37,490 nucleotides of DNA from positions 1 to 37,490 of the IMG/VR virus record IMGVR_UViG_3300030334_000096, one strand, 5' to 3'. This DNA comes from a virus (lineage: Duplodnaviria; Caudoviricetes). The notes below the pieces were generated by a model. That model saw only the letters and a program-made list of their open reading frames with translations, ran no database searches and had not been told where the DNA came from. A program made the translations under genes and the position numbers. Positions 938-20,299 of this stretch are shown here, one piece after another (the first letter of the stretch is position 1; each line of letters starts with the position of its first letter).

Positions 938-973
938 ATCTAAACTACTGTCGGGAGACAGCAGGCACCCACT

Positions 974-1600
974 ATGACTACCTCCCTCAAGCAGCGGCTG
1001 GTCGCCTCGGTCATTGACCGAGAGGGCGGCTACGTCAATCACTCGTCTGATCGTGGCGGCCCTACCAATTACGGCATTACCGTTGCTGTCGCTCGAGAAA
1101 ACGGCTACTACGGCGATATGCGAGAGCTGCCCAAGTCGCTGGCCGTGCGTATCTATGAGGCCCGCTACTGGACGAGCATTCGCCTCAACTGCATTGCACC
1201 GATCAGCGCCACACTGGCCGAATACCTTTTCGATTTTGGTGTTCACTCTGGCCCAGGTCGATCAGCCAAAGAGCTGCAGCGCACGCTTAACGTGCTGAAC
1301 AATCGCGGCCAGCTGTTTGCCGACCTCAAAGAAGACGGTGCCGTCGGCCCCGCTACGCTCAATGCGCTTGACGCTTTCCGCAAGGCCCGGGGCGGTGCTG
1401 GTCTTTATGTGCTGGCTGAGTCTATCAATGGCGTCCGCATTGCCTTCTGCCGTGGCCTCGCTGAGCGGGACGAGCGACAAGAGGACTTCGCCTACGGGTG
1501 GTTTAAGCGCGTCGTCAATTTACGCAACGAGGTAGAAAGCGACCAGGCAGACCGCTTGGTAGCGACGCTATACAGCGAGATCGCGGCGGAGGTGGCCTGA
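974..1600 (+). CDS. endolysin, glycoside hydrolase family 108 with peptidoglycan-binding domain
   Basis: 'REGGYVNHSSDRGGPTNYGIT' GH108 motif; C-terminal 'DGAVGPATL...F.YGWFKR' PG-binding region. Confidence 0.93.
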   Translation: MTTSLKQRLVASVIDREGGYVNHSSDRGGPTNYGITVAVARENGYYGDMRELPKSLAVRIYEARYWTSIRLNCIAPISATLAEYLFDFGVHSGPGRSAKELQRTLNVLNNRGQLFADLKEDGAVGPATLNALDAFRKARGGAGLYVLAESINGVRIAFCRGLAERDERQEDFAYGWFKRVVNLRNEVESDQADRLVATLYSEIAAEVA

Positions 1601-1905
1601 TGGCCCAGGAGCGCGACGTGAAACCCTCCGTATTCGAGCGGCATATGCAGACAGGAATTCAAGTGCTGCTGGTGGCACTGATTATTTGGGCCGGTACCCA
1701 GCTTGTGAAGCTCGGCCAGCAATCGGTTGTTCTCGAAGAACGACTGACTACTCAAGGTCTGATGCTTCAAGAGTTACGCCAAGAGCTCAAAAGCTGGGGT
1801 GACACTTACTACCGAGCTACCGACGCCCGCCGCGAGCTTGATCAGATTGAAACCCGCATCGACAACCTGAATAGCCGTGTATCGGCGCTGGAAGGTGGAC
1901 TGTGA
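1600..1905 (+). CDS. lysis-cassette membrane protein (single TM plus coiled coil)
   Basis: TM 'IQVLLVALIIWAG' then heptad-like coiled coil; translationally coupled between endolysin and holin. Confidence 0.65.
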   Translation: MAQERDVKPSVFERHMQTGIQVLLVALIIWAGTQLVKLGQQSVVLEERLTTQGLMLQELRQELKSWGDTYYRATDARRELDQIETRIDNLNSRVSALEGGL

Positions 1906-2345
1906 ACCTCATTACCAAAGCGCTGAGCGCCATTACCGGCCCGCTATTCAGCGTGATCGATAAAGCGGTGACAGATAAAGACGAAGCCAACCGGCTCAAA
2001 TCTGAGATTCAGTCGCAGCTCATTGAGTCGCAAGACTCGCTGCTCAAGGCTCAGATGCAGATCATCTTGGCCGAAGCGCAGGGCGAGAGCTGGTTGCAAC
2101 GCAACTGGCGGCCGCTGCTGATGATCGTGATCGTTGCTGTGATTGCGAACAACTATTTGCTGGCCCCTTACCTTGGCGCGATCTTCGGCGTGGGGCTGCA
2201 GCTAGATCTTCCAGAGCGGCTATGGGACTTGATGACTATCGGTGTCGGCGGTTACGTCACCGGTCGCACGGTGGAGAAGGGCATTAGCTCATGGCAGCAA
2301 GGCAAGGCGCAGTCAGGCCTCTACCGTGAAGCTGACACTAAGTAA
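1902..2345 (+). CDS. 3TM-type holin (GTA holin-like)
   Basis: 'ESWLQRNWRPLLM' and 'LWDLMTIGVGGYVTGRTVEK' motifs typical of this holin family; next to the endolysin. Confidence 0.85.
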   Translation: MNLITKALSAITGPLFSVIDKAVTDKDEANRLKSEIQSQLIESQDSLLKAQMQIILAEAQGESWLQRNWRPLLMIVIVAVIANNYLLAPYLGAIFGVGLQLDLPERLWDLMTIGVGGYVTGRTVEKGISSWQQGKAQSGLYREADTK

Positions 2346-2451
2346 GCGTATTGAAGCGTGGCTACGGCTGCGCTGGGTTATCGCCGTGTTTCTGCTGTCT
2401 GGGTACTGGCACTACAAGCACCGCAAACACTTCGTGAGGAAGTCGAGATGA
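2326..2451 (+). CDS. possible 41-aa membrane peptide
   Basis: GTG start, hydrophobic core (WLRLRWVIAVFLLSGYW) and basic tail; stop overlaps the next ATG (ATGA). Confidence 0.35.
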   Translation: MKLTLSKRIEAWLRLRWVIAVFLLSGYWHYKHRKHFVRKSR

Positions 2452-2987
2452 GTAAAGAAACAGGCATTAACGGGCCAACAATCACGGTTGACCATATCAA
2501 TAGCGTGATCGTAGACGAGCAGTACCACGTATTCGCAGGCACCACCCTGACCGTATGTGTCCTAACACTGCGTAATGGTTTCACGGTGACCGGGGAAAGC
2601 GCGTGTGTGGATCCTGCCAACTTCGATGCTGAGAAGGGGCGCCATTACGCTCGGGAGCAAGCGTTCGGGAAAATCTGGATGCTTGAAGGCTATCTGCTCC
2701 GAGACCAGCTTCACCAGTCCGCGGCTACTGCGCCTGTTCCCATTGAGGGCAAGCCTGGCTTCATGACATATCAAGGCAAGCCAACCACCCGGGATGCATA
2801 CTGCGTGCAGCCAGGCGATGTCATTGAGAGTGCAGGCGAGGCCACTTATCGCACCGTGATCGAAGGCAAGGCGGTGGAGTTCAAGGCTTACGAGCAGGTA
2901 AATGTGGGTGATTACATCGTCTATCTCACTGACAGCGATATCTACCATTGCCGAGCCGATGTGTTCCACGAGCGAAATATTGTTTAA
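2448..2987 (+). CDS. Phage_gp49_66 (N4 Gp49/Sf6 gp66) family protein fused to a second small domain
   Basis: 'TLTVCVLTLRNGFTVTGESACVDPANFDAEKG...IWMLEGYLL' is the Gp49 family signature; real start taken as ATG 2448; extra C-terminal domain ending 'GDYIVYL...YHCRADVFHERN'. Confidence 0.85.
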   Translation: MSKETGINGPTITVDHINSVIVDEQYHVFAGTTLTVCVLTLRNGFTVTGESACVDPANFDAEKGRHYAREQAFGKIWMLEGYLLRDQLHQSAATAPVPIEGKPGFMTYQGKPTTRDAYCVQPGDVIESAGEATYRTVIEGKAVEFKAYEQVNVGDYIVYLTDSDIYHCRADVFHERNIV

Positions 2988-2992
2988 CACTC

Positions 2993-3110
2993 TCGCTGTG
3001 AAGCGACACGCCACGCTGTGAAGCGTTGCACTGGTCGCGCTGTGAAGCGCCACCACCCGGCCATGCCGTGAGGCACCGCCAACCCCGCCGCACGTCGTGA
3101 GACGTCCGGC
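2993..3110 (+). ncRNA. putative structured ncRNA: array of five GUGA-tetraloop hairpins
   Basis: TCGCT-GTGA-AGCGA (2993-3006), ACGCT-GTGA-AGCGT (3013-3026), GCGCT-GTGA-AGCGC (3037-3050), TGCC-GTGA-GGCA (3064-3075), ACGTC-GTGA-GACGT (3092-3105); intergenic, stems covary. Confidence 0.7.
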
Positions 3111-3160
3111 ATCTTTTGATACGCTGTTCCCATAACACTAACTAGAGTGAGGGGAGCAGA

Positions 3161-3424
3161 ATGCACACCAGCAGGGTCGATCATTACCTATCCATTAGTA
3201 CCGCGAACATTCTTAGAAGTAGTGGGCTTGAGCTATCCAGGCCAACCCCAGAGCTTCAGGAGTTGGTGGATACGGATGCTTGGAAGGAGATATTTGGCCT
3301 TGGCCCTAAGAGACGTGATGAGCTAAGCCATGCACTCACCTCAGCTCGACAGCGGACTCATAAAAGCATTGAGGCCGCAATTGAGCTTCTGGAAGAGCAT
3401 GGCTATACCGTGAATCCGCCTTAA
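3161..3424 (+). CDS. hypothetical protein
   Basis: 87-aa ORF with a good SD (GAGGGGAG) before the ATG. Confidence 0.6.
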   Translation: MHTSRVDHYLSISTANILRSSGLELSRPTPELQELVDTDAWKEIFGLGPKRRDELSHALTSARQRTHKSIEAAIELLEEHGYTVNPP

Positions 3425-3456
3425 GAGTATGTCCTATATGATTGGCGAGTTGTAAT

Positions 3457-3484
3457 CACTGGAGCGTCTGGCGACGCTCCAGTG
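3457..3484. terminator. perfect 12-bp hairpin between convergent genes
   Basis: CACTGGAGCGTC-TGGC-GACGCTCCAGTG. Confidence 0.55.
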
Positions 3485-3489
3485 TTCAT

Positions 3490-4098
3490 TCATTGATGTG
3501 TGCTTTCTGTAAGATATTTAACCGCCTTTTTTACCATTATTTCCTTGTGAAAGTTTTTTAGTGATACCATAAATGGGAAAAGTATTATTGAGTAAAATAA
3601 TGTAGCTATGAAAACTTTTGTTAGATCGATGTCATTGAAGGTGTAGCTCATCATAGCAGGTGTTAAAAAGTAAAAATTCAATGCGAAAAATGAAAATGCC
3701 AGAAATAAGAATATAGCATTGATTTTAAAAGATTTTTTTTCAATAAAATTTACCGGTTCCTTTTTTTTAAATAAGCTGTTGAACCCACTTATTTCAACTT
3801 TGTGTGGTGCAATTCTATAAAATTCTAGTATTTTTGGGGAGTTGGCTTTTTTAAGTGCTAATAGCAGGCATTGTGCATTCGCTTCAAAACCGGTTAAGTC
3901 GTAAAAGTTATGCATGATTACGCCGAATTTTTTGCTTGATATATCTATGTCTTCTTCGCTTGCATATAGATCGATGATTCTGTTTTTGATTTCTTGATCT
4001 ATTTTTTTTTGATTATGCTGAAGGTTTTTATTTGCAACATAATAGGCCATTGCTACACCTAGAAGCGGTAAAATACTTTTAAGTAAATCGTTCATCAT
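3490..4098 (-). CDS. AT-rich membrane protein (moron, opposite strand)
   Basis: 202 aa with about 3 hydrophobic segments; visibly much lower GC than flanks; AAGGGA SD. Confidence 0.7.
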   Translation of the reverse strand: MMNDLLKSILPLLGVAMAYYVANKNLQHNQKKIDQEIKNRIIDLYASEEDIDISSKKFGVIMHNFYDLTGFEANAQCLLLALKKANSPKILEFYRIAPHKVEISGFNSLFKKKEPVNFIEKKSFKINAIFLFLAFSFFALNFYFLTPAMMSYTFNDIDLTKVFIATLFYSIILFPFMVSLKNFHKEIMVKKAVKYLTESTHQ

Positions 4099-4201
4099 AT
4101 CCCTTGCTAGTTGAATAAGTTAGATGTGGCCTCTATTAGGCATCCGAATTATACATTTTTTTTGATCATGGAGGCGCTGCCAGCAATGGCGGCGTTTTTT
4201 T

Positions 4202-4804
4202 ATGGCGAAAAGACACGATTGGGAGCTGATCGAGCGGGAATATCGCACTGGTCGTTTTTCGCTGGCCCAGCTAGAGGCACGGCACAACGTGAACCGCTCG
4301 AATATCAGCCGCCGTGCCAAGAAGTACGGCTGGAAGAAGGATCTCAGCGGGCGCGTGCGTGAGCGCACCCAGGAGAAAATAGCCCGCGTATCGCTGCCGC
4401 CAGAAGCCCAAGAGGCGCTGGACGAGCAAGACGACGCCATCATCGAGTTTGCGGCGAATGAGAACGCCGCCGTAGTGAAAGGGCACCGCAGCACACTAGA
4501 GCGCTGGCGAGGCATTACAAACCGCTACGCCGAGATCCTGGAAGAGCAGGTTGAGAAAGGCACCATCGTTGTAGATGTGCCCACTGGCGGTACCGTTGAA
4601 GTAGATGTGCCGCTGGATTATGTCGGCAAGTGTCTAGGCTTCGGCACCCAAGCGCTTGAGCGCGTGGTCAAGTTGGAGCGCCAAAATTACGGCCTCGACT
4701 TGAAAGAGAGCGACGACGACAAGGCACCAGAAGCTGAGCTCACCGACGATGAGCTAGAGGCGCGCATCGCCAAACTTCAGCAGCAGGTGGGCGGTGAGCA
4801 ATGA
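4202..4804 (+). CDS. terS: terminase small subunit
   Basis: N-terminal HTH 'DWELIEREYRTG..SLAQL...HNV...NISRRAKKYGW'; directly upstream of the terminase ATPase. Confidence 0.8.
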   Translation: MAKRHDWELIEREYRTGRFSLAQLEARHNVNRSNISRRAKKYGWKKDLSGRVRERTQEKIARVSLPPEAQEALDEQDDAIIEFAANENAAVVKGHRSTLERWRGITNRYAEILEEQVEKGTIVVDVPTGGTVEVDVPLDYVGKCLGFGTQALERVVKLERQNYGLDLKESDDDKAPEAELTDDELEARIAKLQQQVGGEQ

Positions 4805-5510
4805 TAACCGCGCTGCCCGCTTGGCGCTGCTGGCGGCGCTGGAAGAAAAGGCGAGGCGCAAACGCTACAACCTGATACGCGAGCTATTCCCCGATGAAGG
4901 CCCGTATCAGCGTGAGCTGTACGGCAAGCACTTAGAGTTTTTCCGGGCAGGCAAGTATCACAAAGAGCGCCTGTTCATGGCCGGTAACCGCGTAGGCAAG
5001 ACGATTGCCGGTGGTGGCGAGATGACCTACCACCTCACTGGCGAGTACCCGCACTGGTGGGAGGGACGCACGTTCGATAAGCCAATCACTGCACTGGCTG
5101 CAGGCGATACCAGCCAAACCACCCGCGACATTATCCAGAGCAAGCTACTCGGCGGCCTTTGGAATACCGACGAGTTCGGCAGCGGCCTGATACCACGCGA
5201 CAAGCTAGGCAAGCCGACGCCTGCCCGGGGCGTTGCCAACCTATACGAAGAGATCAATGTCAGCCACGCCAGCGGCGGTACCAGCCGATTGATGCTCCGC
5301 AGCTATGACCAGGGCCGACGAATATTCCAGGGCACCGAGCAGGACGTGGTCTGGCTCGATGAGGAAGTACCCAAGGACGTATACGACGAGGCGCTGATCC
5401 GCACGATGACCACACGCGGCATTGTGATGATGACCTTTACGCCCCTGTCTGGCCTCACGGAGCTGGTGGTGTCGTTTCTCGAATCCAAACACGAGCAGGA
5501 GCCGGTATGA
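4794..5510 (+). CDS. terL: terminase large subunit, N-terminal ATPase half (P22 gp2-like)
   Basis: Walker A 'AGNRVGKT', Walker B 'VVWLDEE', coupling motif 'TFTP'; ends at TGA 5510. Confidence 0.9.
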   Translation: MSNDNRAARLALLAALEEKARRKRYNLIRELFPDEGPYQRELYGKHLEFFRAGKYHKERLFMAGNRVGKTIAGGGEMTYHLTGEYPHWWEGRTFDKPITALAAGDTSQTTRDIIQSKLLGGLWNTDEFGSGLIPRDKLGKPTPARGVANLYEEINVSHASGGTSRLMLRSYDQGRRIFQGTEQDVVWLDEEVPKDVYDEALIRTMTTRGIVMMTFTPLSGLTELVVSFLESKHEQEPV

Positions 5511-5728
5511 CCGACCCCATCCAATGCGAATATCTCGCCGCGAGCGTCAGCACCAAGTACCAGGAGCGCACCACGGCTGCAGCCAAGCGCATTGCCGACC
5601 TAGTGAAAGAGCGCGGCATTGAAGGCGGCATGCTGTCAATAAAAGTGGCGCGCATGGTAGACCCGCACGCTAGCACTGGCGATGTGCTGACCATTGCAGG
5701 CGCACAGTTCATGGTAGGTCTGCGTTGA
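5507..5728 (+). CDS. 73-aa hypothetical protein inserted between the two terminase halves
   Basis: AGGAG SD; ATGA overlap with the upstream stop and TTGA overlap with the downstream start. Confidence 0.65.
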   Translation: MTDPIQCEYLAASVSTKYQERTTAAAKRIADLVKERGIEGGMLSIKVARMVDPHASTGDVLTIAGAQFMVGLR

Positions 5729-6441
5729 GCCGCTATGTCGTACAAGCGGGCTGGAAAGATGCTCCGCACCTCAAGCAAGAGGATATCGACGATATGGCCA
5801 AGGGCATTAGCCCTCACCAGCTCGAAGCGCGCATGAACGGTATTCCGACCCTAGGAAGTGGCGCCATATTCCCGGTACCAGAAGAAGACATTATCTGTGA
5901 TCCATTCCAAATCCCCGGCTGGTGGGCGCGTGCTTATGGCCTCGACGTTGGCTGGAAAAAGACCGCTGCCGTGTGGGGCGCGCTCGACCGAGATACCGAC
6001 ATTCTCTACCTGACCAGCGAGCATTACCGGGGGCAGGCCGAGCCGACCGTTCACGCGAAAGCCATCAAAATGCGCGGCAGCTGGATGCCGGGAATCATCG
6101 ACTACGCAGGCACGAACCAGAGCGACGGCAAGCGCGTGATGACGCTGTACGAAAACGAAGGCCTGAACCTTATCCGTGCTGACAAGAGCGTGGAGGCTGG
6201 GCTGCTGGAAGTGCTGGACCGGTTAAGCACTGGACGCCTGAAAGTGTTCAGCACGCTGCAGCACTGGCTAGGCGAGTACCGGCTGTACCGCCGCGATGAG
6301 AAAGGCCGCGTGGTGAAACAGAACGACCACCTCATGGACGCCACCCGCTACCTAGTGATGAAGCTCCACCACGCCACCACGCGCCCCGTTCAAAATATCG
6401 GCGCAGGCAGCGCCCCCGGCGACTACACGACAGGGTACTAG
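5725..6441 (+). CDS. terL: terminase large subunit, C-terminal lid plus RNase H-like nuclease half
   Basis: 'RYVVQAGWKDAPHL...ARMNG' lid region; 'GLDVGW' and 'DHLMDATRY' nuclease acidic motifs; TTG start after AGGT. Confidence 0.88.
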   Translation: MSRYVVQAGWKDAPHLKQEDIDDMAKGISPHQLEARMNGIPTLGSGAIFPVPEEDIICDPFQIPGWWARAYGLDVGWKKTAAVWGALDRDTDILYLTSEHYRGQAEPTVHAKAIKMRGSWMPGIIDYAGTNQSDGKRVMTLYENEGLNLIRADKSVEAGLLEVLDRLSTGRLKVFSTLQHWLGEYRLYRRDEKGRVVKQNDHLMDATRYLVMKLHHATTRPVQNIGAGSAPGDYTTGY

Positions 6442-6442
6442 C

Positions 6443-8701: not shown

Positions 8702-8897
8702 CCTCGACCGCCACTCAGGCACTTGGCAATCCGTGACTAAGTGGCTGCAGGATCGCCGCCAGCAGTGCGTTGAGTCGCTGATTAACGGCAGCCCCAACGA
8801 CGACAAGCTGCGCGGGGAGATTCGCGTCATTGATGACCTGATCGCTAACGCGGACGACACGCCCGCGCGAGAGCCGCTACCAGATACCGATTACTAA
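8694..8897 (+). CDS. small conserved head-module protein
   Basis: 'TWQSV..WL......L.......KLRGEIR....L' pattern commonly found between portal and scaffold; ATG 8694 overlaps the portal end. Confidence 0.6.
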   Translation: MDNLDRHSGTWQSVTKWLQDRRQQCVESLINGSPNDDKLRGEIRVIDDLIANADDTPAREPLPDTDY

Positions 8898-8919: not shown

Positions 8920-8980
8920 ATTGCCTGCACGCAGGCCAACCGCGTCGTGAGACGCCACAGCCGTTCGGGAGAACCGCTAC

Positions 8981-9874
8981 ATGAGCACCGAGAACCAGCC
9001 GCTTGATAAGCCGCAGGATACTCAAGACGACTTCGACAGCGCGTTTGACGAGTATGCCGGAAAGACCACGGCACCCGATGAGCGCGACGAGTACCACCGC
9101 GACCAGGAGCCAGAGCAAGAGCCGGACCCAGAGGGCGAGGAAGAAGAAGCCGCCCAGCCTGAGCCGGACATTAACGAACGCCTAAGCGCGCTCGAGCAGG
9201 AAAACCAGAAGCTCAAGCACTCTGAGGCCAGTCAGCGCGGCCGCCTGGGCGCGTACCAACGACAGATCAACGAGCTGCAGCAGCAACTACAGCAACGCCA
9301 GCAGCACACCCAGCACGCCGATGGCCGGGAGAAGTCCGACGACGAGCGCCGCGACGAAGCTGCCCAAGAGATGGGCAGCGACGATTGGGACGCTTTTAAG
9401 GAGGACTTTCCCGACATGGCCCGCGCCTTCGAAGCTCGTCTGAAAGCAGACCAGCAGCGGCAGGCGCAGTTAGAACAGCAGCTCCAGCAGCTGCAATCCG
9501 CAGTGCAGCCCATCCAGCAACAGGCGCATGAACAGCAGCTTCAATCGGAATACGCCCGCCTCGAAAGCCGGCACAGCGATTGGCGTGACGTGGTCAATGC
9601 CCCTGAGTTTCAGTCATGGCTGCAAAACCAGAACCCGGCTATCCAGCAGCTTGCGGGAAGCGAAAGCGCCGATGACGCATCCGCGCTCCTCGATTTCTAC
9701 AAGGGCAACATGCCGGGCGATAACAGCCGTGCCACTCAGCACGACAAACGGCAGAGCCGACTAGCGAACGCCCAGACCGTGAGCCGCCGAGGGGCCGCTC
9801 AACAACGGGGCACGCCAGACGACTTCGATGCCGCCTTTGAACACTACGCCGCCAAAAAAGCGCGGCAACGCTAA
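8981..9874 (+). CDS. capsid scaffolding protein
   Basis: Acidic, Gln-rich coiled-coil protein immediately upstream of the major capsid gene; 'H.DW..VV....FQ.WL' motif. Confidence 0.75.
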   Translation: MSTENQPLDKPQDTQDDFDSAFDEYAGKTTAPDERDEYHRDQEPEQEPDPEGEEEEAAQPEPDINERLSALEQENQKLKHSEASQRGRLGAYQRQINELQQQLQQRQQHTQHADGREKSDDERRDEAAQEMGSDDWDAFKEDFPDMARAFEARLKADQQRQAQLEQQLQQLQSAVQPIQQQAHEQQLQSEYARLESRHSDWRDVVNAPEFQSWLQNQNPAIQQLAGSESADDASALLDFYKGNMPGDNSRATQHDKRQSRLANAQTVSRRGAAQQRGTPDDFDAAFEHYAAKKARQR

Positions 9875-9900
9875 TCCTTCTTACCGTGAGGTAACACGCA

Positions 9901-10893
9901 ATGGCTACTACTACCTATGGCTCTATCTCGCAGCGTACCGCTGCCTGGGCTGCCGCTGAAATGCTGGCTCACGCCGAGCCTATCTTGGTGCTGTCCAAAT
10001 TCGGCCAGTCCAAGCCGATGCCCAAGAACAAAGCCGATACGGTGAAGTTCCGCCGCCCGGTGCCGTTCAACATCCCTAATACCCCGCTGGCCGAAGGCGT
10101 CACCCCGACTGCGCAACAAATGCAGTACGAGGACGTGGAAGTACAGCTCAAGCAGTGGGGCGCTTGGGTTGAAATCACCGATGTGGTCAACGACTTGGCC
10201 GAAGACCCGGTGCTGTCTGACGCTTCCATGCTGTGCGGCGAACAAGCAGCGGAAACCGTCGAGGTGCAGACCTGGGGCGCCATTCGCGCAGGCACCAACG
10301 TGTTCTATGCCAACGGCGCAGCCCGCTCAGCGGTGAACACCAAGATTAGCCTGGCTAAGCAGCGCGCTATCACTCGCGCACTGAAAGCCCAGCGCGCCAA
10401 GAAAGTCACCAGCATGGTGGGCAGCTCTCCCAACTACTCCACCGAGCCGGTTGATGCCGCGTTTGTCGCGTTCGCACATACCGACCTCGAAGCGGATATT
10501 CGAGACATGGTCGGCTTCGTGCCCACTGAGAAATACGGCAGTATGAAGGCGCTACCGTATGAGATCGGCAAGGTGGAGGATGTGCGCTACGTACTTTCCC
10601 CGGTGCTGGACAAGTTCGCCGACGCGGGCGGCACTGCAGGCAGCATGGTGTCTACCACTGGCACCAACGCAGACGTATACCCCGTAGTGTACATCGCCAA
10701 GGAGTCCTACGGACTGGTGCCGCTGAAAGGCAAGAACGCGGTCACGCCGAAGGTGCTGAACCCAGATACCCCGCGTGGCGGCGACCCGCTTGGCCAGCGC
10801 GGCTCCGTAGGCTGGAAAACCTACTTTGTGGCCAAAGTGCTTAACGAAGCATGGCTTGCCCGCCTGGAGGTCGCTGCTTCCGAGCTGGCGTAA
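9901..10893 (+). CDS. major capsid protein, N4-gp56 family
   Basis: 'LVLSKFGQSKPMPKNK.DTVKFRR', 'LAEGVTP', 'EIGKVEDVR', 'DPLGQRGSVGWK' motifs. Confidence 0.93.
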   Translation: MATTTYGSISQRTAAWAAAEMLAHAEPILVLSKFGQSKPMPKNKADTVKFRRPVPFNIPNTPLAEGVTPTAQQMQYEDVEVQLKQWGAWVEITDVVNDLAEDPVLSDASMLCGEQAAETVEVQTWGAIRAGTNVFYANGAARSAVNTKISLAKQRAITRALKAQRAKKVTSMVGSSPNYSTEPVDAAFVAFAHTDLEADIRDMVGFVPTEKYGSMKALPYEIGKVEDVRYVLSPVLDKFADAGGTAGSMVSTTGTNADVYPVVYIAKESYGLVPLKGKNAVTPKVLNPDTPRGGDPLGQRGSVGWKTYFVAKVLNEAWLARLEVAASELA

Positions 10894-10909
10894 CCCCTAA
10901 CCACCCCTC

Positions 10910-10936
10910 AAGCCCCGGCATCCGCTGGGGCTTTTT
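10910..10936 (+). terminator. intrinsic terminator after the capsid gene
   Basis: AAGCCCCGGC-ATCC-GCTGGGGCTT followed by TTT. Confidence 0.75.
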
Positions 10937-10963
10937 ATTTCTGCTTACCGTGAGGTAACCGCA

Positions 10964-11374
10964 ATGTCAGAAGTCAACGTCAACACCATGGACCGCGCCA
11001 CGCTGGAGCAAACCGCTAACGACCTGGGCGTTAAGTTTGCACACAACGCCAGCGACGACACGCTGCGTAACAAGCTGCGTGAAGCACTAGGCGAGCCGCC
11101 AGCGCCAGAGCTGAATACGGCGCCAAGCACCGCTGAAAGCACCAAAGAAAAGCGCTTTGAGATCATCATTCAAACCGATGGCAAGGATAAGCAGCCGGTG
11201 CCCGTGGGTGTGAACGGCAAGATGTGGGCCATTCAGCGCGGCAAAAACGTCATCGTGCCTGAATCCGTGGTCGAGGTGCTGAAAAACGCCAACCGCTACG
11301 AGTACGACCCCAAGGATATGAGCCGCACCGAAGTCTTGGCCTACCCCTTCCAGATCGTGCGCGAAGTGGAGTAA
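10964..11374 (+). CDS. conserved virion-module protein with an N-terminal small helical (HeH/Rho-N-like) domain
   Basis: 'LEQTANDLGVKFAHNASDDTLRNKL' N-terminus and 'VPVGVNG....IQRG..V.VPE.VVEVL.NA' C-terminus. Confidence 0.65.
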   Translation: MSEVNVNTMDRATLEQTANDLGVKFAHNASDDTLRNKLREALGEPPAPELNTAPSTAESTKEKRFEIIIQTDGKDKQPVPVGVNGKMWAIQRGKNVIVPESVVEVLKNANRYEYDPKDMSRTEVLAYPFQIVREVE

Positions 11375-11377
11375 GCC

Positions 11378-11992: not shown

Positions 11993-13812
11993 GTAGCAGC
12001 GCTTACACCCCTTTGGGCGGCGGCATTGACCTTGTTACACCGCCCGCACAGCTCGCCCCCGGCGCCTGCTTATCCGCCGTCAACTACGACTGCCCAGTAA
12101 CAGGCGGCTATCGTCGCATTGAGGGCTATACGCAGATTGGCCCGGAAGTGCCGGGCACTGGCCCGATGCTGGGTGTGGTGTCGTTTGGCAGCTACGAGCT
12201 AGCGGTGCGGCAGCAGGTGGATATTCCCGCCGAGGAGGAAGGCGGCGACCCTGCCGAATGGGCAGCGCTGTTCGTGCGTGAAGGCGAAGACGCAAGCGAA
12301 ACCTGGCGCTTTGTGTCAGAGGCCAATCTGGGTCGCCACGAATGGACGGAAGGCAACGTATTAGGCACCGAAGGCGGGCGGCGCTTATATGGCGTGGGTG
12401 GCGGCAAGCCGTTCACGTTGGCCCTGCCTGCTGCCGAGGCTGCAGATTACGCCTCTATCACGGCGCTGGTCACTGCGATGGAAAGCCACTTTGCCGATGG
12501 CGTGACCTTTACCAACGCTACGGACGTGCTCACCCTCAAAGATCCGAAAGGGCGCGACATCACCGGCGCTACGGTGCTAGGCCGTGACGGCACGGCTTTG
12601 CTATCGCCTGCTGACGTCACAGGGGATGGCACCACCACTACGGAAATGGCAATCGATCTAGCGAGCATCGAACCCAACGACATTGAGCGTGTGACGTTCA
12701 GCGTAGGCAGTCTCCCGCAGATGAGTATGATTGTCCCGGACAAGACGCTGATCCATACCGAGCTGACCGATGCCCCAAATGGCGCGGTGTTCATCAAGCT
12801 ATTCAAGAACCACCTGTTTTTAGGTTTCACCGAGGGCAGCATTCAACATTCCGAGCTGGGCAAGCCTGCCGAGTGGGATGCCTCTACCGGCGGCGCGGGC
12901 GAAATAGCAGTGGGCCAAACGCTCACCGGCCTAGTGCTGGGCCGTGGTGGCGTATTGCATGTGCTTTGCCGCGACACCATTCAAACCCTGTATGGCTCAA
13001 GCTCGGCCGATTGGCGCCTAGAGGTCACTGTTCCCAATAGTGGCGCACGCCCTTACAGCGGGCAAAGCCTAATGCAGCCTTACTTTATCGCCGAGCGCGG
13101 CATCGGCAGTTTGGAGGCAACCAACGCTTATGGTGACTTCCGGCCCATGCAGCCAGGTTATCAGGTCGAACCCATCTTTTTGCAGGAGCGACTGTTCACC
13201 CGCGTCAAAGCCTCGGCGATCAGCAAACAGCGGGCACAGTATCGAGTGTGGTTCGATAACGGCACCGGCGTGTATATGAGCCCGACCGGCATTACGACCG
13301 TGCGTTTTCCCGCGCAGGTCGAAGTGACGCACAGCGGTGAGCGTGACACCGGTGCCGAGGTGCTGCTATTCGGGGATGACAAAGGTAACGTCTACCGCCT
13401 GGATAACAACGCCACCAGCTTTAATGGCGCGCCCATCGAAGCCTTCCTAACGCTGGCCTATAACACGCTCAAAAGCCCATCGGTACGGAAGCGATTCCGC
13501 CGCGTGTTTTGGGACGTGCGCTCCGGCTCTAACGCCAATATTTCTATCCTCACCGACTTCGACTACGGCCGTGTTGAAACCGCAACACCGCGCAGAGAGT
13601 TCATTCAGTTCCTGCTCGGTGGCGGGTTGTGGGATGTCGCCAACTGGAACCAGTTTAGCTGGTCGTCACCCTCACTAGGCCAAGAGCCGATGAACGTCAG
13701 CGGCACTGGCACCGCCATCAACTTCGCCATCTACTCCAACTCTGACAGTGAGCCCCACGAAATCTTGGGCTACGACATTCACTTTGAACAGCGGAGGCGC
13801 CGCCGTGGCTGA
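11989..13812 (+). CDS. tail nozzle / tail tubular protein B-like (beta-propeller)
   Basis: 607 aa beta-rich protein after the adaptor; 'GGIDLVTP', 'GGYRRIEGY', 'RKRFRR', 'W.QFSW' motifs. Confidence 0.7.
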   Translation: MSSSAYTPLGGGIDLVTPPAQLAPGACLSAVNYDCPVTGGYRRIEGYTQIGPEVPGTGPMLGVVSFGSYELAVRQQVDIPAEEEGGDPAEWAALFVREGEDASETWRFVSEANLGRHEWTEGNVLGTEGGRRLYGVGGGKPFTLALPAAEAADYASITALVTAMESHFADGVTFTNATDVLTLKDPKGRDITGATVLGRDGTALLSPADVTGDGTTTTEMAIDLASIEPNDIERVTFSVGSLPQMSMIVPDKTLIHTELTDAPNGAVFIKLFKNHLFLGFTEGSIQHSELGKPAEWDASTGGAGEIAVGQTLTGLVLGRGGVLHVLCRDTIQTLYGSSSADWRLEVTVPNSGARPYSGQSLMQPYFIAERGIGSLEATNAYGDFRPMQPGYQVEPIFLQERLFTRVKASAISKQRAQYRVWFDNGTGVYMSPTGITTVRFPAQVEVTHSGERDTGAEVLLFGDDKGNVYRLDNNATSFNGAPIEAFLTLAYNTLKSPSVRKRFRRVFWDVRSGSNANISILTDFDYGRVETATPRREFIQFLLGGGLWDVANWNQFSWSSPSLGQEPMNVSGTGTAINFAIYSNSDSEPHEILGYDIHFEQRRRRRG

Positions 13813-14920
13813 TGACCGTTATTACTCTAACACCGACGAGGCTCAACGCTTTCAGCCAGGCACCACAGCGGAAGCGGGGCAGGTTGATCAGAAGTTTGAT
13901 GAAGTGACGGCAGGCTTTCAGGAAGTCGCGCAGGACACCGACCGAAGCCTGAAGCTGCCCGCCGTCACCGGCACAAGCCAGGAGCTTAACGCCACACCAC
14001 TGCAGCGCCGCCGAATGGTTGTTGGCTTTGATGCGGACGGCAACTTAACGCTACTGCAAGGCTTTGGCTGGCGGGGTGATTGGGCGACGGCGACTGAATA
14101 TTTCGTCAACGATGTATTCCGCGACCCGGTTACCAAAAACCTTTACGTCACCGTTACCCGCCATACCAGCGCCGCCGCACTAAGCACCGACATTACCGCA
14201 GAGCGTGTTGAGCTAGCGATTAGCGTAGAGGAGATCGAGGCCGCCAAGACAGCCGCACAAACGGCAGCCTCTACCGCCACCGCCAAGGCAGGAGAGGCGG
14301 CAAGCTCTGCATCTACAGCTGCTGCCAAGGCAAGCGAAGCAAGTGCGTCGGCAGGCACTGCCACCACCAAAGCAGGCGAGGCCAGCAGTTCCGCAGCCGC
14401 CGCAGCCGAGATTTACGACAATTTTGATGACCGCTACCTGGGCGCTAAAACCTCAGACCCCGACACTGATAACGATGGTGATCCACTCTTAGTCGGCGCG
14501 CTTTATTTCAACTCTACTAGCAGCTCTATGCGCCAGTGGAGCGGCAGCGCCTGGGGTGATAGCTATGCCACGGTGGACCTTGAGGGCGATGCTAGCGGCG
14601 CGATTAACATGGCGGGCAACGCCCTGAATATCCGATGGAGCACAAAAACTGCTGCTTATGCGGCGATCAAAGGTGACCGACTGTTGGCGAATACGAGCGC
14701 AGGGGCCTTTACGATAACGCTACCTTCCACTCCCTCGTCCGGCGACGAAGTGTGGTTTGCCGACCCTGGCGCTAACTGGGCGACGAACAACCTAACAGTG
14801 GATGGAAATGGCAATAACATCGACGGCGCAGCGACTTTTTCCGCTGATCTAAATGAAGGTTATTTCGCGGCGATTTATAACGGCGCGGCATGGGTGATTA
14901 AATTTGCAGGGGGTGTGTAA
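13805..14920 (+). CDS. tail fibre protein
   Basis: GTG 13805 with GGAGG SD; 'WRGDWATATEY.VND' module, Ala/Ser/Thr-rich repeats, 'FDDRYLGAK..DP..DNDG..L..GALYFN' segment and a C-terminal 'ANTSAGAFTITLP' beta module. Confidence 0.8.
   Translation: MADDRYYSNTDEAQRFQPGTTAEAGQVDQKFDEVTAGFQEVAQDTDRSLKLPAVTGTSQELNATPLQRRRMVVGFDADGNLTLLQGFGWRGDWATATEYFVNDVFRDPVTKNLYVTVTRHTSAAALSTDITAERVELAISVEEIEAAKTAAQTAASTATAKAGEAASSASTAAAKASEASASAGTATTKAGEASSSAAAAAEIYDNFDDRYLGAKTSDPDTDNDGDPLLVGALYFNSTSSSMRQWSGSAWGDSYATVDLEGDASGAINMAGNALNIRWSTKTAAYAAIKGDRLLANTSAGAFTITLPSTPSSGDEVWFADPGANWATNNLTVDGNGNNIDGAATFSADLNEGYFAAIYNGAAWVIKFAGGV
14272..14400 (+). repeat. three 14-aa (42-bp) tandem repeats in the tail fibre
   Basis: TATAKAGEAASSAS / TAAAKASEASASAG / TATTKAGEASSSAA. 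Confidence 0.7.
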
Positions 14921-15414
14921 TGGGCGCATTAAGTGATTTTGTTCGTAATCCTGCCTTCGAGTCTGCACTGCTTTATGCTGTTGATGAAAAGCCGGATGGA
15001 TCTAGTGGCGGCGCATCTAATAACGACTCTTACCGCACCAGGGATTTAAATACCATACTGGTAAACGATATAGAAGGCGCGTCTCTTGCCTCCAATCGGG
15101 TATTGCTACCTCCTGGTAGCTACTATATTGAAGCGTCGGCTCCTGCCTCATATTCAGATAGTCACCATTTGGCGTTATTTAACTATACAGGCTCTACCTA
15201 TGAGTGTTTTGGCACATCTGAATATACAGATAGCGGAGCCGGGCTCGACCAGACGAGATCCTTCTTATTTTGCAAGGTTACAATTCAAGCGGCTACTGAA
15301 TTTGAGTTTCGCCATTACACTCAGAGTTCACGAACATTAACTGGGTTAGGCGTTGGGAGAACGCAAGGCAGCCCCGAAATATATCTGCAAGCAAAAATCT
15401 GGAAGGTGGCATAA
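14920..15414 (+). CDS. tail-fibre-associated (receptor-binding tip-like) protein
   Basis: Beta-rich 164 aa, lower GC than flanks, coupled to the fibre gene (TAATG). Confidence 0.6.
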   Translation: MGALSDFVRNPAFESALLYAVDEKPDGSSGGASNNDSYRTRDLNTILVNDIEGASLASNRVLLPPGSYYIEASAPASYSDSHHLALFNYTGSTYECFGTSEYTDSGAGLDQTRSFLFCKVTIQAATEFEFRHYTQSSRTLTGLGVGRTQGSPEIYLQAKIWKVA

Positions 15415-15905
15415 TGACTTATGTGCTTATAGAAGGCGGTGTCGTAAGGCAGAAGCAGCCATACCCGCAAGATGGCTTCATCAAAGCGCCCGATCATATC
15501 GTGTGCGGCATGTTTTACGATCACAAGACAGGCGGATTCACCACCCCGCCCAAGTACACCACGCTTGAAGAAGCCAGAGCCGACAAACAGCGCGAGATCA
15601 ACGCCGCTTATTCCTCCGAACTTGATGCCATCCTTTCCGACTACCCGGAAGCTGAGACCAAGACATGGGACAAGCAAGAGAGTGAGGCGCGGGCGTATCA
15701 AGACGATAGCACCGCCTCGACCCCGCTGATTGATGCTATCGCCACCGCCCGCAGCATGGATAAGGCCGAGCTAGTGCAGCGGGTGATTGCTAAAGCGGAT
15801 GCCTGGATTGCGTTAAGTGGGGCAGCGACGGGTAAGCGGCAGGCGTTGGAAGATGCGATTGCTAGCACTGAAAGCTTGGAGGCGCTCGACGCTATTAGCT
15901 GGTAA
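15414..15905 (+). CDS. tail fibre assembly chaperone-like protein
   Basis: 'YP..E..TW.KQE.EARAY...TPLID.IA.AR...GKRQALED.I...LDAISW' pattern. Confidence 0.75.
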   Translation: MTYVLIEGGVVRQKQPYPQDGFIKAPDHIVCGMFYDHKTGGFTTPPKYTTLEEARADKQREINAAYSSELDAILSDYPEAETKTWDKQESEARAYQDDSTASTPLIDAIATARSMDKAELVQRVIAKADAWIALSGAATGKRQALEDAIASTESLEALDAISW

Positions 15906-15926
15906 CGCTAACACTCTGCACCACAC

Positions 15927-15946
15927 GCCGCGAAAGCGGTTTTTTT
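15927..15946 (+). terminator. intrinsic terminator
   Basis: GCCGC-GAAA-GCGGT followed by a T tract. Confidence 0.7.
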
Positions 15947-16007
15947 ATGCCCGCACAAAACACCTATACTATGACAGAGCACTATCCAGCAAGCCGGGAG
16001 GCTTCCT

Positions 16008-17099
16008 ATGGCATTCGATGAACAGTCCTACTACATCAATAAAGCTGCTCAACTCAATAAGACTGGAGAGAGGGGTAAGAACGATTGGACAGTGGTTGAT
16101 GTAAAAAACGCCTTTAATGACGCAGGGCTTTCGGCTCAAGAGCATTATCAGCGCTATGGAAAAAGTGAGGGCATTAAGGCGACTAGCTCTACATCGCGAC
16201 CTCAAGCAGTAACTCCTACGTTCGATAATGATACATACCTAAAAAATAAAACGTCTCAGCTCAACCAGACTGTGCAGGGAGGTCGGAGTAACTGGACAGT
16301 AGCAGACACGAAAAAGGCAATTGCTGATGCTGGTATGAGTTTGCAAGAACACTACAACCGATATGGTGCCGCTGAAGGGGTTCTGCCTTTTGCAGAAGCC
16401 CAGATTCAAACCAGAGGGCTATTAGCTCCTCAGACTAACGTCAGCGTAAACCAGACATCCCAAGGTCAGTTGCATAAAATGTTGGCAAGTGACTCCCCGC
16501 TGATGCAACAAGCAGCCACAATGGGCAATCAGCGCGCTAATGCTAGAGGATTGCTTAATAGCAGCATGGCAAGCCAAGCCGCACAGGGTGCGATGATTTC
16601 GGCAGCCACTCCTTTCGCACAGCAAGACGCCCAGACTTACTTTCAGAACAGTCAGGCTAATGCAGATCGCCAGCAGCAGGAATACATGGCGAACCTCAAC
16701 TACCAGAACCAGCGGGGCTTGAACGAACAGCAATATGGCTTTCAGCGTGGCTTGAATGAGCAAGGCTATCAGTTCGACATGGGCCGAATGCAAGCGGACT
16801 ACGGCTTCTCCAGTCAGTTATCAACCCAAGAGGCCAGTCAAACCCTTAACCAGCTTTATGCCACCAGCACGGCGAATGGCTGGGGCGTGATGGCCAATAA
16901 CCTGACCGACATTGTGGGACAGTATTCCGCACAGCTAGAGCGCATCCAGGTAAACCCCGACATTGAGGAAGAGGATAAAGTGACGCTTATCGAGCAAGTG
17001 CTAGCGATGCGCGACACCGACATCGAGTTCCAGAAGTCCCTTTATGACAACCTTCGCACTTCTTATCTCGATAAGACCGGCGTTTTCCCCAACCGCTAA
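16008..17099 (+). CDS. putative internal virion/ejection protein with two N-terminal repeats
   Basis: 'SPLMQQA...ANARGLLNSSMA.QAAQ.AMI..ATP.AQQDAQTY' segment typical of podoviral ejection proteins; duplicated N-terminal 'FD..Y..NK..QLN...WTV...EHY.RYG..EG' unit. Confidence 0.65.
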   Translation: MAFDEQSYYINKAAQLNKTGERGKNDWTVVDVKNAFNDAGLSAQEHYQRYGKSEGIKATSSTSRPQAVTPTFDNDTYLKNKTSQLNQTVQGGRSNWTVADTKKAIADAGMSLQEHYNRYGAAEGVLPFAEAQIQTRGLLAPQTNVSVNQTSQGQLHKMLASDSPLMQQAATMGNQRANARGLLNSSMASQAAQGAMISAATPFAQQDAQTYFQNSQANADRQQQEYMANLNYQNQRGLNEQQYGFQRGLNEQGYQFDMGRMQADYGFSSQLSTQEASQTLNQLYATSTANGWGVMANNLTDIVGQYSAQLERIQVNPDIEEEDKVTLIEQVLAMRDTDIEFQKSLYDNLRTSYLDKTGVFPNR

Positions 17100-17107
17100 G
17101 GTGATTT

Positions 17108-17506
17108 ATGAACTTACTAGATGGCCTGGACACCGCGCTCAACAGTGACGCGGTGAGCGCCGCTGTGGACGTGGCGGGCAAGTCCAACTTTATGGACAAC
17201 ATCGACCATTCTGCCAGCGCTAGTTGGTGGGATACCGGCATTAAATACGCGACTGATGCCTTTGGGTGGATGGAAGACAACCCAACCACCACCAATCTGC
17301 TGGCAGGCGTGGTCGGTGGCGTGGGCCAGTACCTAATGAGCAAGGAGCAGCTTGCCCAGCAGGAGCGCTTTGCACGCGAGCAATGGGAGCGTGAGCGCGC
17401 CGCTCGACGCATCAAGCCCGGCAGCATGGACGGCTACGGCTCGCACGTCGCCACGGCAAAAGGCGGCCTACTCACCAATGGGCTGATTATTGGCCAGGAG
17501 GATTAA
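17108..17506 (+). CDS. putative ejection/virion protein
   Basis: SD AAGGTG; short Gly-rich hydrophobic segment; position in the ejection cluster. Confidence 0.6.
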   Translation: MNLLDGLDTALNSDAVSAAVDVAGKSNFMDNIDHSASASWWDTGIKYATDAFGWMEDNPTTTNLLAGVVGGVGQYLMSKEQLAQQERFAREQWERERAARRIKPGSMDGYGSHVATAKGGLLTNGLIIGQED

Positions 17507-18601
17507 ATGGGTTACGGCGGCGTAGGCGAACAAGGCGGCGGCTTTGGCGGCGAGGCTGATACCGGCGGTGTAGCCGAAGGCAGCAGCGGTAACAGCAGCT
17601 CCGGTGGCGGTCGTGGTGGCAACCTTGGCTCCGAAATGGGTACCGTTGGCCCAGGTCAGGGCTACGGTTCTGGTCATTCAAGTACAGATGGCAATGCGGG
17701 CGGTGGAGGTCGCGGCTCAGGTACGAGCAACAACGGCTATGGAGACACGTTCGGGGATAGCTTAGATGCCCGGAGCGCTGCACCCGAAGCTAAGGCAGGC
17801 AGCTCGATGACCGGCACGGCCGCCATGGTCAGTATGGATGATGCCGCCAAGGAGGCGAAAGCCGTGTTTGGCGGCTGGGCCACGCAAGCGGATACCCAGC
17901 TAGGGCCGGAAAACGTGGGCTATGGTAACGCTGCTTATGGGGGCAATGGCGCGATTGCCAATGCTTCTCAAGCGGCTGCTATGACCCGCGACCAGCACAC
18001 GCAGTCGCTAGAAATGGCGGGCATTCCCGAATCACACCACGCTGCCGCACGCCCAAGCGCACTGGCGAAAGGACTCAGTTTCGCTGCCACGGTCGCCAAC
18101 CCGGTGGCTGGATTGTTAGGCACCGCCCTCAGCACTCACAGTGCCGCAAAAAACGCACAGACCAGTATTGGCGCTATCAACGATGCGTTTGGTACCAGCC
18201 TCGATAGCTCCTACGGCACAGCGCTTGGCCAGCAAGCGGTAGGCACCGCAGCAGGTACGTTAGGCGGCAAGGTCGGTGGGAATTTTGGTGCCAAAGCGGG
18301 CATGAGCGTCGCTGGCGTACCGGGGGCTGTTTTAGGAGGCCTGCTAGGGGCGGCGACGCTAGGCAACACCGCACGCGGCCTAGCCATGGGCCCCAACACC
18401 AACACCGAAGGCCCACAAGGCCCAGCAGCCGGTGCCGATGGCGACAGTGGTTTATCGAACGCACCCAGCAGCGCCGTGGCGTCTGCGTCTTCCACACCTA
18501 AAAGCGGTTACGTCAGCATCGATAATTACGCGATGGACAGCGACCGCAACCCCTTTGACCGTTACAGCGACTACGCCGCGCAATTCTTTGGCACCGCCTA
18601 G
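17507..18601 (+). CDS. Gly-rich putative ejection protein (membrane-spanning glycine zippers)
   Basis: AGGAGG SD; Gly/Ser low-complexity N-terminus and GxxxG-rich hydrophobic segments. Confidence 0.65.
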   Translation: MGYGGVGEQGGGFGGEADTGGVAEGSSGNSSSGGGRGGNLGSEMGTVGPGQGYGSGHSSTDGNAGGGGRGSGTSNNGYGDTFGDSLDARSAAPEAKAGSSMTGTAAMVSMDDAAKEAKAVFGGWATQADTQLGPENVGYGNAAYGGNGAIANASQAAAMTRDQHTQSLEMAGIPESHHAAARPSALAKGLSFAATVANPVAGLLGTALSTHSAAKNAQTSIGAINDAFGTSLDSSYGTALGQQAVGTAAGTLGGKVGGNFGAKAGMSVAGVPGAVLGGLLGAATLGNTARGLAMGPNTNTEGPQGPAAGADGDSGLSNAPSSAVASASSTPKSGYVSIDNYAMDSDRNPFDRYSDYAAQFFGTA

Positions 18602-18609
18602 GAGGCAAC

Positions 18610-19224
18610 ATGGTAGGACTACTACAGCAGGGCATGCAGCCCGCACCGCAGCAAGGCCCTCAAGGCCAGCCGCCGCAACAGCCGCCCCAGGGCGGGCAGC
18701 CAGTGCAAGAGGGCAACGACCCCCGCGTAAACGCCACACCCGAAGAGGCGGGCCCGCAGTTTGAAGCGCTGCTGGAGGGTATGCTTGGCTATCTGTACGG
18801 CGACGGTATGCAGCAGGCAACGCAAATGCTCCAGCAGGGCGACGACATTACCCGCCGCATGGGGCAGGTGATTGGCACCGTGATGGTGACCACCTACAAC
18901 ATGATCGCCCAGGACGGTAAGACCGTGCCGCCGAATGTGATGGTGCGCGCCGGTATCGAGCTATCCAAAGCCGTGGGCGAAATGGCGATGGAGGTTGGAC
19001 GCTTGCAACCCGGTGAAGATGAGGCCATTGAAGCCGCGTTTATGCTGGGCTTGGGGCTGTTCGGCAAAACCGCTGAAGGGCTAGAAGATGCCCAGCGGCA
19101 GCGCTACAGCGAAATGGTGACCGCGATTCAGGACGGCAAGCGCGAGACCATGCAGGGGCAGCAGCCTCCACAACAGCAGTCACAAGGCCAGCCGACTCAA
19201 CAGCCCATGATGGAGGGCGCATAA
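18610..19224 (+). CDS. putative virion protein
   Basis: AGGAGG SD; Gln/Pro-rich ends around a helical core. Confidence 0.65.
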   Translation: MVGLLQQGMQPAPQQGPQGQPPQQPPQGGQPVQEGNDPRVNATPEEAGPQFEALLEGMLGYLYGDGMQQATQMLQQGDDITRRMGQVIGTVMVTTYNMIAQDGKTVPPNVMVRAGIELSKAVGEMAMEVGRLQPGEDEAIEAAFMLGLGLFGKTAEGLEDAQRQRYSEMVTAIQDGKRETMQGQQPPQQQSQGQPTQQPMMEGA

Positions 19225-19225
19225 C

Positions 19226-20224
19226 ATGGCACTAGGACTCATCGGCGCGGCATTGTCTGGAGGGGCAGAAGCCGCGCAAGATAACGCCCGCACCCGCATC
19301 AAGCAGATGCACGACGAGGCGATTCTGCGTATGCGCCAAAACTTCGCCAAAAGTGAGCGCATCGCTGGGCAGGAATTCACCACCAATGAGCGCGTGGCAG
19401 GGCAAGGCTTCACCTCAGAACAAAACGAGCTGAATAGAGGGCACGACTTAACGTTGACCCAAATGCGCGAGCAAGGGGCAAACAGTCGCACAGGAGCGCA
19501 GATTGCCGCCGGAGACCGTCGCGCTCAGATGGGATTGTTGCAACAAGGCATGAGCGCAGAGGGCAACCCTGTTTGGTTTAACCCGGTATCTGGCGAGCGA
19601 TACGATGCTCCAGAAGGCGTGACTCTTAGCAGCCCAGACCTAACAGGTCGTCAAAAAGCTCAGCTCGATATGCTTGAAAATCAGGCCAAACCGCTGCGCG
19701 AAAAAATGGCTGAAGGGATGCCACTAACACCAGAGGAAAAAACCACGCTAGGCCAATTGGAAGCGCAGGCGCAATCACTGATTGGTGGCGGCCAGCAAGG
19801 CATGACACCCTTCCAGCAACTTATGCAGGGGGAGGGAGGTAGTCAGCCAGAAGCCAAGGCTACCAATCCTGACACCATCCCCGGCCAAGTGCGCCAACAA
19901 CAGGAGGAGCGCCGCAATACTCAAGAAGCTAATGAGGCGCGCCGCCAAGCCAGCCAAGCGCGTGACTCTGCTGATGCCGTGCTACAGCGTATTGAGCGAG
20001 AAGCGGCGGGCGGCGCCACGCGCGGCGGCTTGCTAGCTCAGGTCAATCAGGCCGCAGGGCGCGGCGAAGTAAGCCAAGAAGCCATTGCTGAAGCGCAGCA
20101 GGTGGTCCAGCAGATTCTTGCACTTGACCAAAACCCCAGCATCTCAGTCGATGAAAAGCGCTGGCTATCCGAGCGCCTAATTCGCTTGCAAGAAGCCGGT
20201 GTACCGCTCAATCTTGACCAGTAA
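19226..20224 (+). CDS. putative ejection protein
   Basis: N-terminal 'MALGLIGAALSGG', coiled coils and short 'ER.AGQ.FT' repeats. Confidence 0.6.
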   Translation: MALGLIGAALSGGAEAAQDNARTRIKQMHDEAILRMRQNFAKSERIAGQEFTTNERVAGQGFTSEQNELNRGHDLTLTQMREQGANSRTGAQIAAGDRRAQMGLLQQGMSAEGNPVWFNPVSGERYDAPEGVTLSSPDLTGRQKAQLDMLENQAKPLREKMAEGMPLTPEEKTTLGQLEAQAQSLIGGGQQGMTPFQQLMQGEGGSQPEAKATNPDTIPGQVRQQQEERRNTQEANEARRQASQARDSADAVLQRIEREAAGGATRGGLLAQVNQAAGRGEVSQEAIAEAQQVVQQILALDQNPSISVDEKRWLSERLIRLQEAGVPLNLDQ

Positions 20225-20299
20225 CCCGTAGCCCATTGCTGGCTGTACCACGCCAGCGATGACGTTACGCCTACCAGCCTTGTCGGGAGACAACGCCTC

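Follow-up and report, generated by a model that had tools for sequence, protein, structure and literature searches.

Hairpins at the starts of late genes

The DNA analysed here (the window) is the complete 37.5-kb virus record IMGVR_UViG_3300030334_000096 (37,490 nucleotides), and it holds the late region of a temperate podovirus-like phage. It encodes an endolysin, a holin, the terminase, an SU10-type portal and its adaptor, the capsid, a tail fibre and a 2730-aa polyvalent protein; the capsid protein is 98% identical to that of a prophage in Vreelandella aquamarina ADH-27 (L081, G001). The early region lies outside the window and was read in relatives instead. The element in question is a small hairpin: its stem of 4-5 bp is closed by a C·C-type mismatch and carries a GNGA loop, which is of the GNRA type. 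Thirteen copies occur in the window, eight of them before seven late genes and five in an array before the terminase region. The motif is a real, widespread and apparently undescribed RNA element.

All features given here lie on the plus strand unless stated otherwise. The leftmost hairpin (947-962; 5 bp, GGGA loop, A·C flank, -6.6 kcal/mol) precedes the endolysin gene (974-1600; GH108 and PG-binding domains), with a GGGAG 16 nt from the ATG. The Shine-Dalgarno sequence (SD) of the Acb4-family (Gp49) gene (2448-2987) lies under a hairpin with a GUGA loop enlarged by one base and a C·C flank (2428-2444), and the same copy is seen in relatives. Two hairpins stand before the gene of the probable scaffolding protein (8981-9874), a label inferred from its place before the capsid gene. 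The first (8941-8956; 5 bp, GUGA, C·C) has a core identical to many copies in the rpsJ-rplC spacer of host genomes, described below; the second (8959-8978; 4 bp, GGGA, C·C, with outer pairs) covers the SD. The SD of the major capsid gene (9901-10893) is covered by a hairpin at 9880-9895 (5 bp, GUGA, C·C, -4.6 kcal/mol), and an identical hairpin (10944-10959), just past a terminator-like site at 10910-10933, lies over that of the post-capsid gene (10964-11374), whose 136-aa product has no function assigned. Copies with GGGA loops and C·C flanks cover the SDs of the first probable ejection gene (hairpin 15988-16007, gene 16008-17099) and of the polyvalent protein gene (hairpin 20277-20296, gene 20300-28492). 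Within this giant gene lies a doubtful further copy (26289-26304; GUGA, A·A flank), which may be due to chance; it stands 4 nt upstream of an in-frame ATG at 26309, a possible internal start (26289-26311).

The eight gene-start hairpins were all found where the original prediction had placed them, and the five left unlisted in its total of 13 are those of the array (2993-3105). Its G(U/G)GA loop is better described as GNRA-type, GNGA optionally with one 3' base; the C-C mismatch it reported is present in most copies but not at the endolysin gene. The plus (late) strand holds 12 hairpins that combine a G(U/G)GA loop with five or more Watson-Crick pairs, and the minus strand holds one, compared to a mean of 0.28 and a maximum of 3 per strand in 300 dinucleotide shuffles. 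With a C·C flank, the counts are 8 and 0, and the shuffle mean is 0.017. The single copies fold marginally (-4.4 to -8.2 kcal/mol; -4.4 to -6.8 kcal/mol for the start-proximal ones) and no better than shuffles (z 0.54 to -1.40).

The array before the terminase region

The array (2992-3106) consists of five GUGA hairpins with cores at 2993, 3013, 3037, 3064 and 3092, which fold as five separate hairpins, better than shuffles (z -3.4). Relatives carry it directly upstream of the small terminase gene terS (4202-4804 in the window). In the window genome about 1 kb is inserted between the two (3110-4168, without strand assignment; a relative's contig joins 3110 to 4168), with open reading frames (ORFs) at 3161-3424 (plus strand) and 3490-4098 (minus strand). 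In L177 the motif is kept at terS although the gene itself has been swapped for another family. For terS, the apparent SD precedes the ATG by about 30 nt, a distance bridged by a terminator-like hairpin and a U run (4165-4204). Some arrays (L281, L301, L331, L358, L273) contain an insert that matches the complement of the 16S 3' end over up to 12 nt; such inserts may trap ribosomes or start a tiny ORF.

Some observations would fit a role in transcription, in which the hairpin would work like boxB or a put site and modify or pause RNA polymerase along the lengthy late operons and the host S10 operon. The 5-bp stem of the window copy at 3037 is that of P22 boxB-left as given in the record, a terminator-like hairpin follows the arrays at terS, the copies in Pseudomonas phage PAJU2 flank a terminator-like site, and the Escherichia coli S10 leader uses NusA-dependent pausing (PMC3616713, in part). 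Such a role is decidedly unlikely, given that boxA is no feature of the surroundings (4/220 copies vs 2 in controls) and that no convincing N-like arginine-rich gene was found in 17 carrier regions, several of them partial, though this screen did put P22 gp24 at the top of its ranking and an N-like HK97 ORF in third place. The hairpins also build the SD into the loop and, in gaps of 40-400 nt, prefer the 3' quarter (63 vs 21, n=141). As for termination, the phage copies display no U enrichment 3' of the stem of the kind that marks an intrinsic terminator, and the plus-strand copies are absent from the terminator-like sites listed for the window. An N4-type DNA hairpin promoter was rejected because the GNGA loop sits on the coding strand.

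Shape and covariation across phages

The shape of the element was surveyed in 56 phage or prophage regions by collecting all intergenic late-strand GNGA hairpins of at least four pairs, with no constraint on stem or flank. Among the 229 distinct hairpins obtained, 111 have four pairs, 109 have five and nine have more; C·C closing is found in 127, and a C at position -6 (six bases 5' of the loop) in 81-85%. The GNGA loop with one extra 3' base recurs before phage late genes, and GAAA and GUAA loops are seen in some relatives. A UCC tract often follows 3' of the hairpin (L271, L279, L336, L338, L342, L353, L361, L380) and could pair with the downstream SD to form a second small hairpin.

Since some of these regions had been gathered through the motif, covariation was assessed in two less circular comparisons, the first being an exact search of viral contigs in which one stem pair was left free. 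This search yielded 104 distinct contexts (123 loci), namely 55 with C-G, 35 with T-A, 5 with T-G and 9 with C-A; the free pair is thus Watson-Crick in 90, G-U in five and unpaired in nine (Fisher p 4e-14, the contexts not being independent). Orthologous scaffold genes provide a second view: the C·C-closed hairpin, which corresponds to the second scaffold copy of the window and is the most conserved one, is present in 25 of 29 genomes and is built from seven different 4-bp stems. Both results uphold the original claim of covarying stems at late-gene starts. Pairs were also counted on alignment A1, but for the five inner ones this count is circular, and it was not used as evidence.

Five distant scaffold orthologues retain the C·C stem with three pairs and a non-GNRA loop such as UUCG. 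This fits a protein-free structural element, whose GNGA loop would dock into an RNA receptor on the ribosome or the same mRNA, or whose hairpin would insulate, tune or stabilise processed late mRNAs. Tertiary docking and stabilisation are standard tasks of GNRA loops, with GYRA/helix preferences (PMC6326782, in part); the G at loop position 3 is invariant and position 2 is free, which suits docking, and no phage factor was found. On the whole such an element is unlikely as the explanation, as a pure stabiliser gives no reason for the 5-bp limit, the kept C·C or the preference for GNGA, no receptor-like flank common to the phage copies was found in the 56 regions, and the copies are not enriched after terminators (28/97 vs 32/144 gaps). 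The last comparison also led to the rejection of a link to upstream terminators.

Placement relative to the Shine-Dalgarno sequence

After filtering for stem and flank, 225 distinct copies are intergenic and 17 lie within genes. The loops of the intergenic copies are GUGA in 164 cases, GGGA in 41, GAGA in 11 and GCGA in 9. At most 30 nt from a called start there are 123 copies, 114 of which contain or precede the SD. The original prediction located the SD in the loop and 3' stem of most copies in the window; across phages it is inside the hairpin in 66 of the 123, in 48 the hairpin precedes the SD, and in nine no SD was found. The geometry goes with the loop: near-start GGGA loops hold the SD in 34 of 35 copies, and the loop is GUGA in 41 of the 48 hairpins with the SD outside.

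In some GC-rich prophages (L335, L337, L350, L360) a single hairpin opens a long structured leader before lysis genes (about 170 nt in L337), possibly a larger RNA motif. A few copies (L149, L161 and the G125/G138 regions) stand before genes of the early region, namely a small one close to the repressor region and one for replication; the motif is not strictly late.

Distribution among phages

Contrary to the view that the motif might be confined to the window phage, it occurs before late genes of many unrelated phages. The genes that follow it encode capsid, scaffold, tail tube, terminase, adaptor and lysin, in head and tail modules that are unrelated; a phage genome has about nine copies at most, almost all of them on the late strand. 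Carriers comprise the window family, a further Halomonas group with a different capsid, HK97-type siphoviruses and phages with P22-type coats (labels from sequence reading). Among 15 cultured phages, six of them covered in part, only PAJU2 is positive, with four copies before the major tail gene; the motif was not found in lambda, HK97, P22, D3, phiHAP-1 and nine others. The genomes of Pam1, TMCBR2 and BcepF1, recovered as blastn matches, yielded no copy.

A conserved copy in host genomes

Over 151 Halomonadaceae genomes taken together, the pattern has about the same frequency as a reversed control, and paired matches cluster in prophage-sized spans. In G001, the sole fully paired match outside a prophage (out of 18 matches) lies in the spacer between the ribosomal-protein genes rpsJ and rplC, 77 nt upstream of the rplC start. 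This spacer was then searched in 101 genomes of the family with anchors in the flanking sequence that placed no demand on the loop or the 3' side of the stem. The hairpin was recovered in 69 genomes; the other 32 did not match the anchors. All 69 loops begin with GNGA (by hand count 18 GUGA, 3 GCGA, 2 GAGA and 46 with one extra base), the stems fall into three main types that alternate via compensatory changes, and 65 copies have a C·C flank, three have C·U and one has an irregular flank. Hosts are therefore not free of the motif: 69 of 101 family genomes keep it as a conserved structure in a ribosomal-protein operon, as expected of a ribosomal-protein leader (r-leader). A class-wide search with the exact pattern hit 1/121 genomes, the query host itself, and used a pattern too strict to inform.

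Part of the same spacer resembles 23S rRNA domain I (Rfam LSU 329-385, E 5.7e-10), and this mimic overlaps the ribosome binding site of rplC. It lies at L515:1527-1583 in the G001 spacer, was also read in L555-L583 and is present, by eye, in 26 of 29 order-wide spacers. The mimic is likely a leader bound by L4. An rRNA mimic in the operon is a signature of ribosomal-protein leaders (PMC3616713, in part). This 23S-mimic leader before rplC was not found in the accessible parts of two r-leader papers and is an additional, apparently unlisted yield of the spacer. Hairpin and domain I mimic are separate elements. The helix closing the hairpin-bearing junction uses bases that the mimic needs too; therefore, the rpsJ-rplC spacer may be a switch.

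Host and phage copies might share no function at all, being convergent stable GNRA hairpins, with quasi-palindrome repair of the DNA as the source of their covariation. Short inverted repeats can be homogenised by template switching, and GUGA closed by C-G is a common stable loop, rRNA included. This account is very improbable in view of the strand bias, the proximity to starts, the fixed stem length and the C·C; it is likewise at odds with the motif kept at the replaced terS gene of L177 and with 69 out of 69 GNGA loops in the host spacer.

Candidate readers and a proposed mechanism

The original prediction left the choice between a phage and a host RNA-binding protein. No phage protein family common to all carriers was detected by BLAST or phmmer, small ORFs included, a search that very diverged proteins could escape. 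Two individual candidates were rejected. PF13876 is the Acb4 family of anti-CBASS sponges (preprint 10.1101/2024.12.30.630793, in part), and as a member of this nucleotide-sponge family the Gp49 product is not an obvious RNA binder; its distribution among carriers is also patchy. The protein at the Q position belongs to no Pfam family and to a PHROG of unknown function, and two of the phages with a homologue, AUS531phi and LC3I3, are without the motif.

Late translation could nevertheless be repressed or activated by an RNA-binding protein of the phage, either one that has diverged beyond detection or a late structural protein such as the scaffold, with the array as its sponge. The number of copies per phage genome and their bias to the late strand would suit it, as would the strong conservation of the scaffold copy and the failure of bulk host DNA to exceed the reversed control; the P22 scaffold is reportedly an autoregulator of translation. 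We consider it unlikely, since no phage protein co-distributes with the motif, HK97-type carriers have different head modules, P22 itself lacks the motif and hosts would not maintain a conserved, covarying site on behalf of a phage protein. Of the two branches, the rpsJ-rplC copy favours the host one.

The hairpin, its covariation, its late-strand place at gene starts and the conserved host copy are established. On this basis the late mRNA hairpin is tentatively predicted, at somewhat less than an even chance, to be a translational operator co-opted by phages, a site for a host RNA-binding protein, probably ribosomal, that holds late genes down until late RNA outnumbers the protein. The hairpin would act as RNA, and the protein would read the loop plus the C six bases 5' of it; a host-encoded reader is suggested because the structure is kept in a host ribosomal-protein operon. 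Binding would clamp the marginal hairpin over or beside the SD and repress initiation. Leaky late RNA in a lysogen would in this way stay silent, and after induction late mRNA and the five-copy array would titrate a small pool of free protein and turn translation on, the array perhaps serving as a sponge that sets the threshold. Repression is modestly favoured over activation, because a mismatch-capped marginal stem of at most five pairs leaves access to ligand binding rather than to folding alone, and because one repressor covers both the SD-inside and the SD-adjacent geometries.

As to the ligand, the best rRNA look-alikes of the motif are helix 93 of 23S rRNA (score 14.1) and a 16S GUGA hairpin near position 1069 (score 10.1). 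The host helix 93 reads like the phage consensus with a GUGA loop. L2 is a weak lead, named because its gene rplB is in the same operon and helix 93 is the closest look-alike. L2 binds helix 93 in its major groove (PMC2330241, in part), and the S4 domain of RluB binds its loop end as an isolated stem-loop (PMC3919597, in part; this paper also matches the helix label). R-leaders, for their part, are typically bound by ribosomal proteins and often mimic rRNA (PMC3616713, in part). A bolder extension, which we regard as unlikely, is that many unrelated temperate phages have wired their late genes into host ribosomal-protein feedback. Through copies of a host r-leader hairpin, a free ribosomal protein, perhaps L2, would gate translation of capsid, packaging and lysis genes by ribosome supply, and the phage array, by sponging the protein, would trigger late translation and de-repress the S10 operon too.

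Several observations weigh against a host protein that represses late translation. The phage sets were partly gathered using the motif itself, and phiHAP-1, a phage of the same host species, is without it. No called start lies within 30 nt of 102 of the 225 copies (a count that includes arrays and gene-calling errors), and the computed accessibility of the SD at hairpin starts is no lower than at other late starts of the window, which speaks against simple occlusion. The rRNA likeness is within chance (28 loops compared; null P per loop 0.005 for 23S and 0.025 for 16S), and the motif has no counterpart to the bulged A of helix 93. The main weakness is that the host copy is restricted to the family, while phages of Pseudomonas (PAJU2) and other hosts carry the motif: a GNGA hairpin was seen in 1/29 order-wide spacers, in a genome that is also part of the family sample, and no paired copy was found near rplC in 26 further genomes.

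Accounts of late-gene control in temperate phages usually centre on transcription (Q-type antitermination). Reuse of one hairpin at lysin, terminase, scaffold, capsid, tail and ejection genes of unrelated phages points to a second, post-transcriptional layer. Given the conserved host copy, the reader should exist in uninfected Halomonadaceae, and a ribosomal protein in this role would directly couple phage output to the state of the host's ribosomes.

Other features of the window

The Acb4-family gene (2448-2987) fuses the anti-CBASS sponge domain to a small second domain, phrog_36318, possibly making a two-signal sponge. The large terminase (4794-6441) consists of separate ATPase and nuclease genes with a 73-aa ORF (5507-5728) in between, and this split layout recurs in several relatives. 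Further genes at 30018-31371 and 31851-33998 comprise an Arc-like repressor/antirepressor pair, an endonuclease I plus Excalibur gene, and an integrase fragment.

Comparison with known systems

Rfam 15 returned no family at gathering score, for the single hairpins or for the array, and only chance matches at E up to 10. Its description was not found in the literature searched, the supplements of PMC2864571 included. An unnamed candidate in PMC5737381 or PMC10690425 may overlap; a table of the latter names Halomonas-phage candidates without sequences.

The element resembles the CsrA/RsmA system in placing short hairpins over the SD of many genes and in having a multi-hairpin array. CsrA and RsmA recognise ANGGA loops in hairpins over the SD and are titrated by the sponges CsrB, RsmY and RsmZ. 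The motif differs, as proposed originally, in that 164 of 225 loops are GUGA, without GGA, and the ANGGA consensus is not present. With the coat-protein translational operators of RNA phages, and with the scaffold autoregulation ascribed to P22, it shares a marginal start-site hairpin and a predicted protein clamp; it differs in its many unrelated targets, the lack of a candidate phage protein and the host copy, and P22 does not carry it. The boxB of lambdoid nut sites, bound by N, likewise has a 5-bp stem and a GNRA-like loop, and one copy has the P22 boxB-left stem, but the motif is found in late rather than early operons, without boxA or an N-like gene and with an extra loop base 3' of the A. 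Helix 93 of 23S rRNA, bound by L2, RluB and RluF, matches, in its host version, the phage consensus with a GUGA loop; the motif has no bulged A2602 and accepts any base at loop position 2, and the likeness is not significant.

Closest in setting are the r-leaders. The motif is not among the rows compared in Table 1 of PMC7247131, which reports 20 r-leader candidates. Like the L4-regulated S10 leader, it is a structured RNA in a ribosomal-protein operon, beside an rRNA mimic that overlaps a ribosome binding site (PMC3616713, in part). The L4 RNA lies upstream of rpsJ, whereas the motif occupies the rpsJ-rplC spacer and recurs at many late genes of phages.

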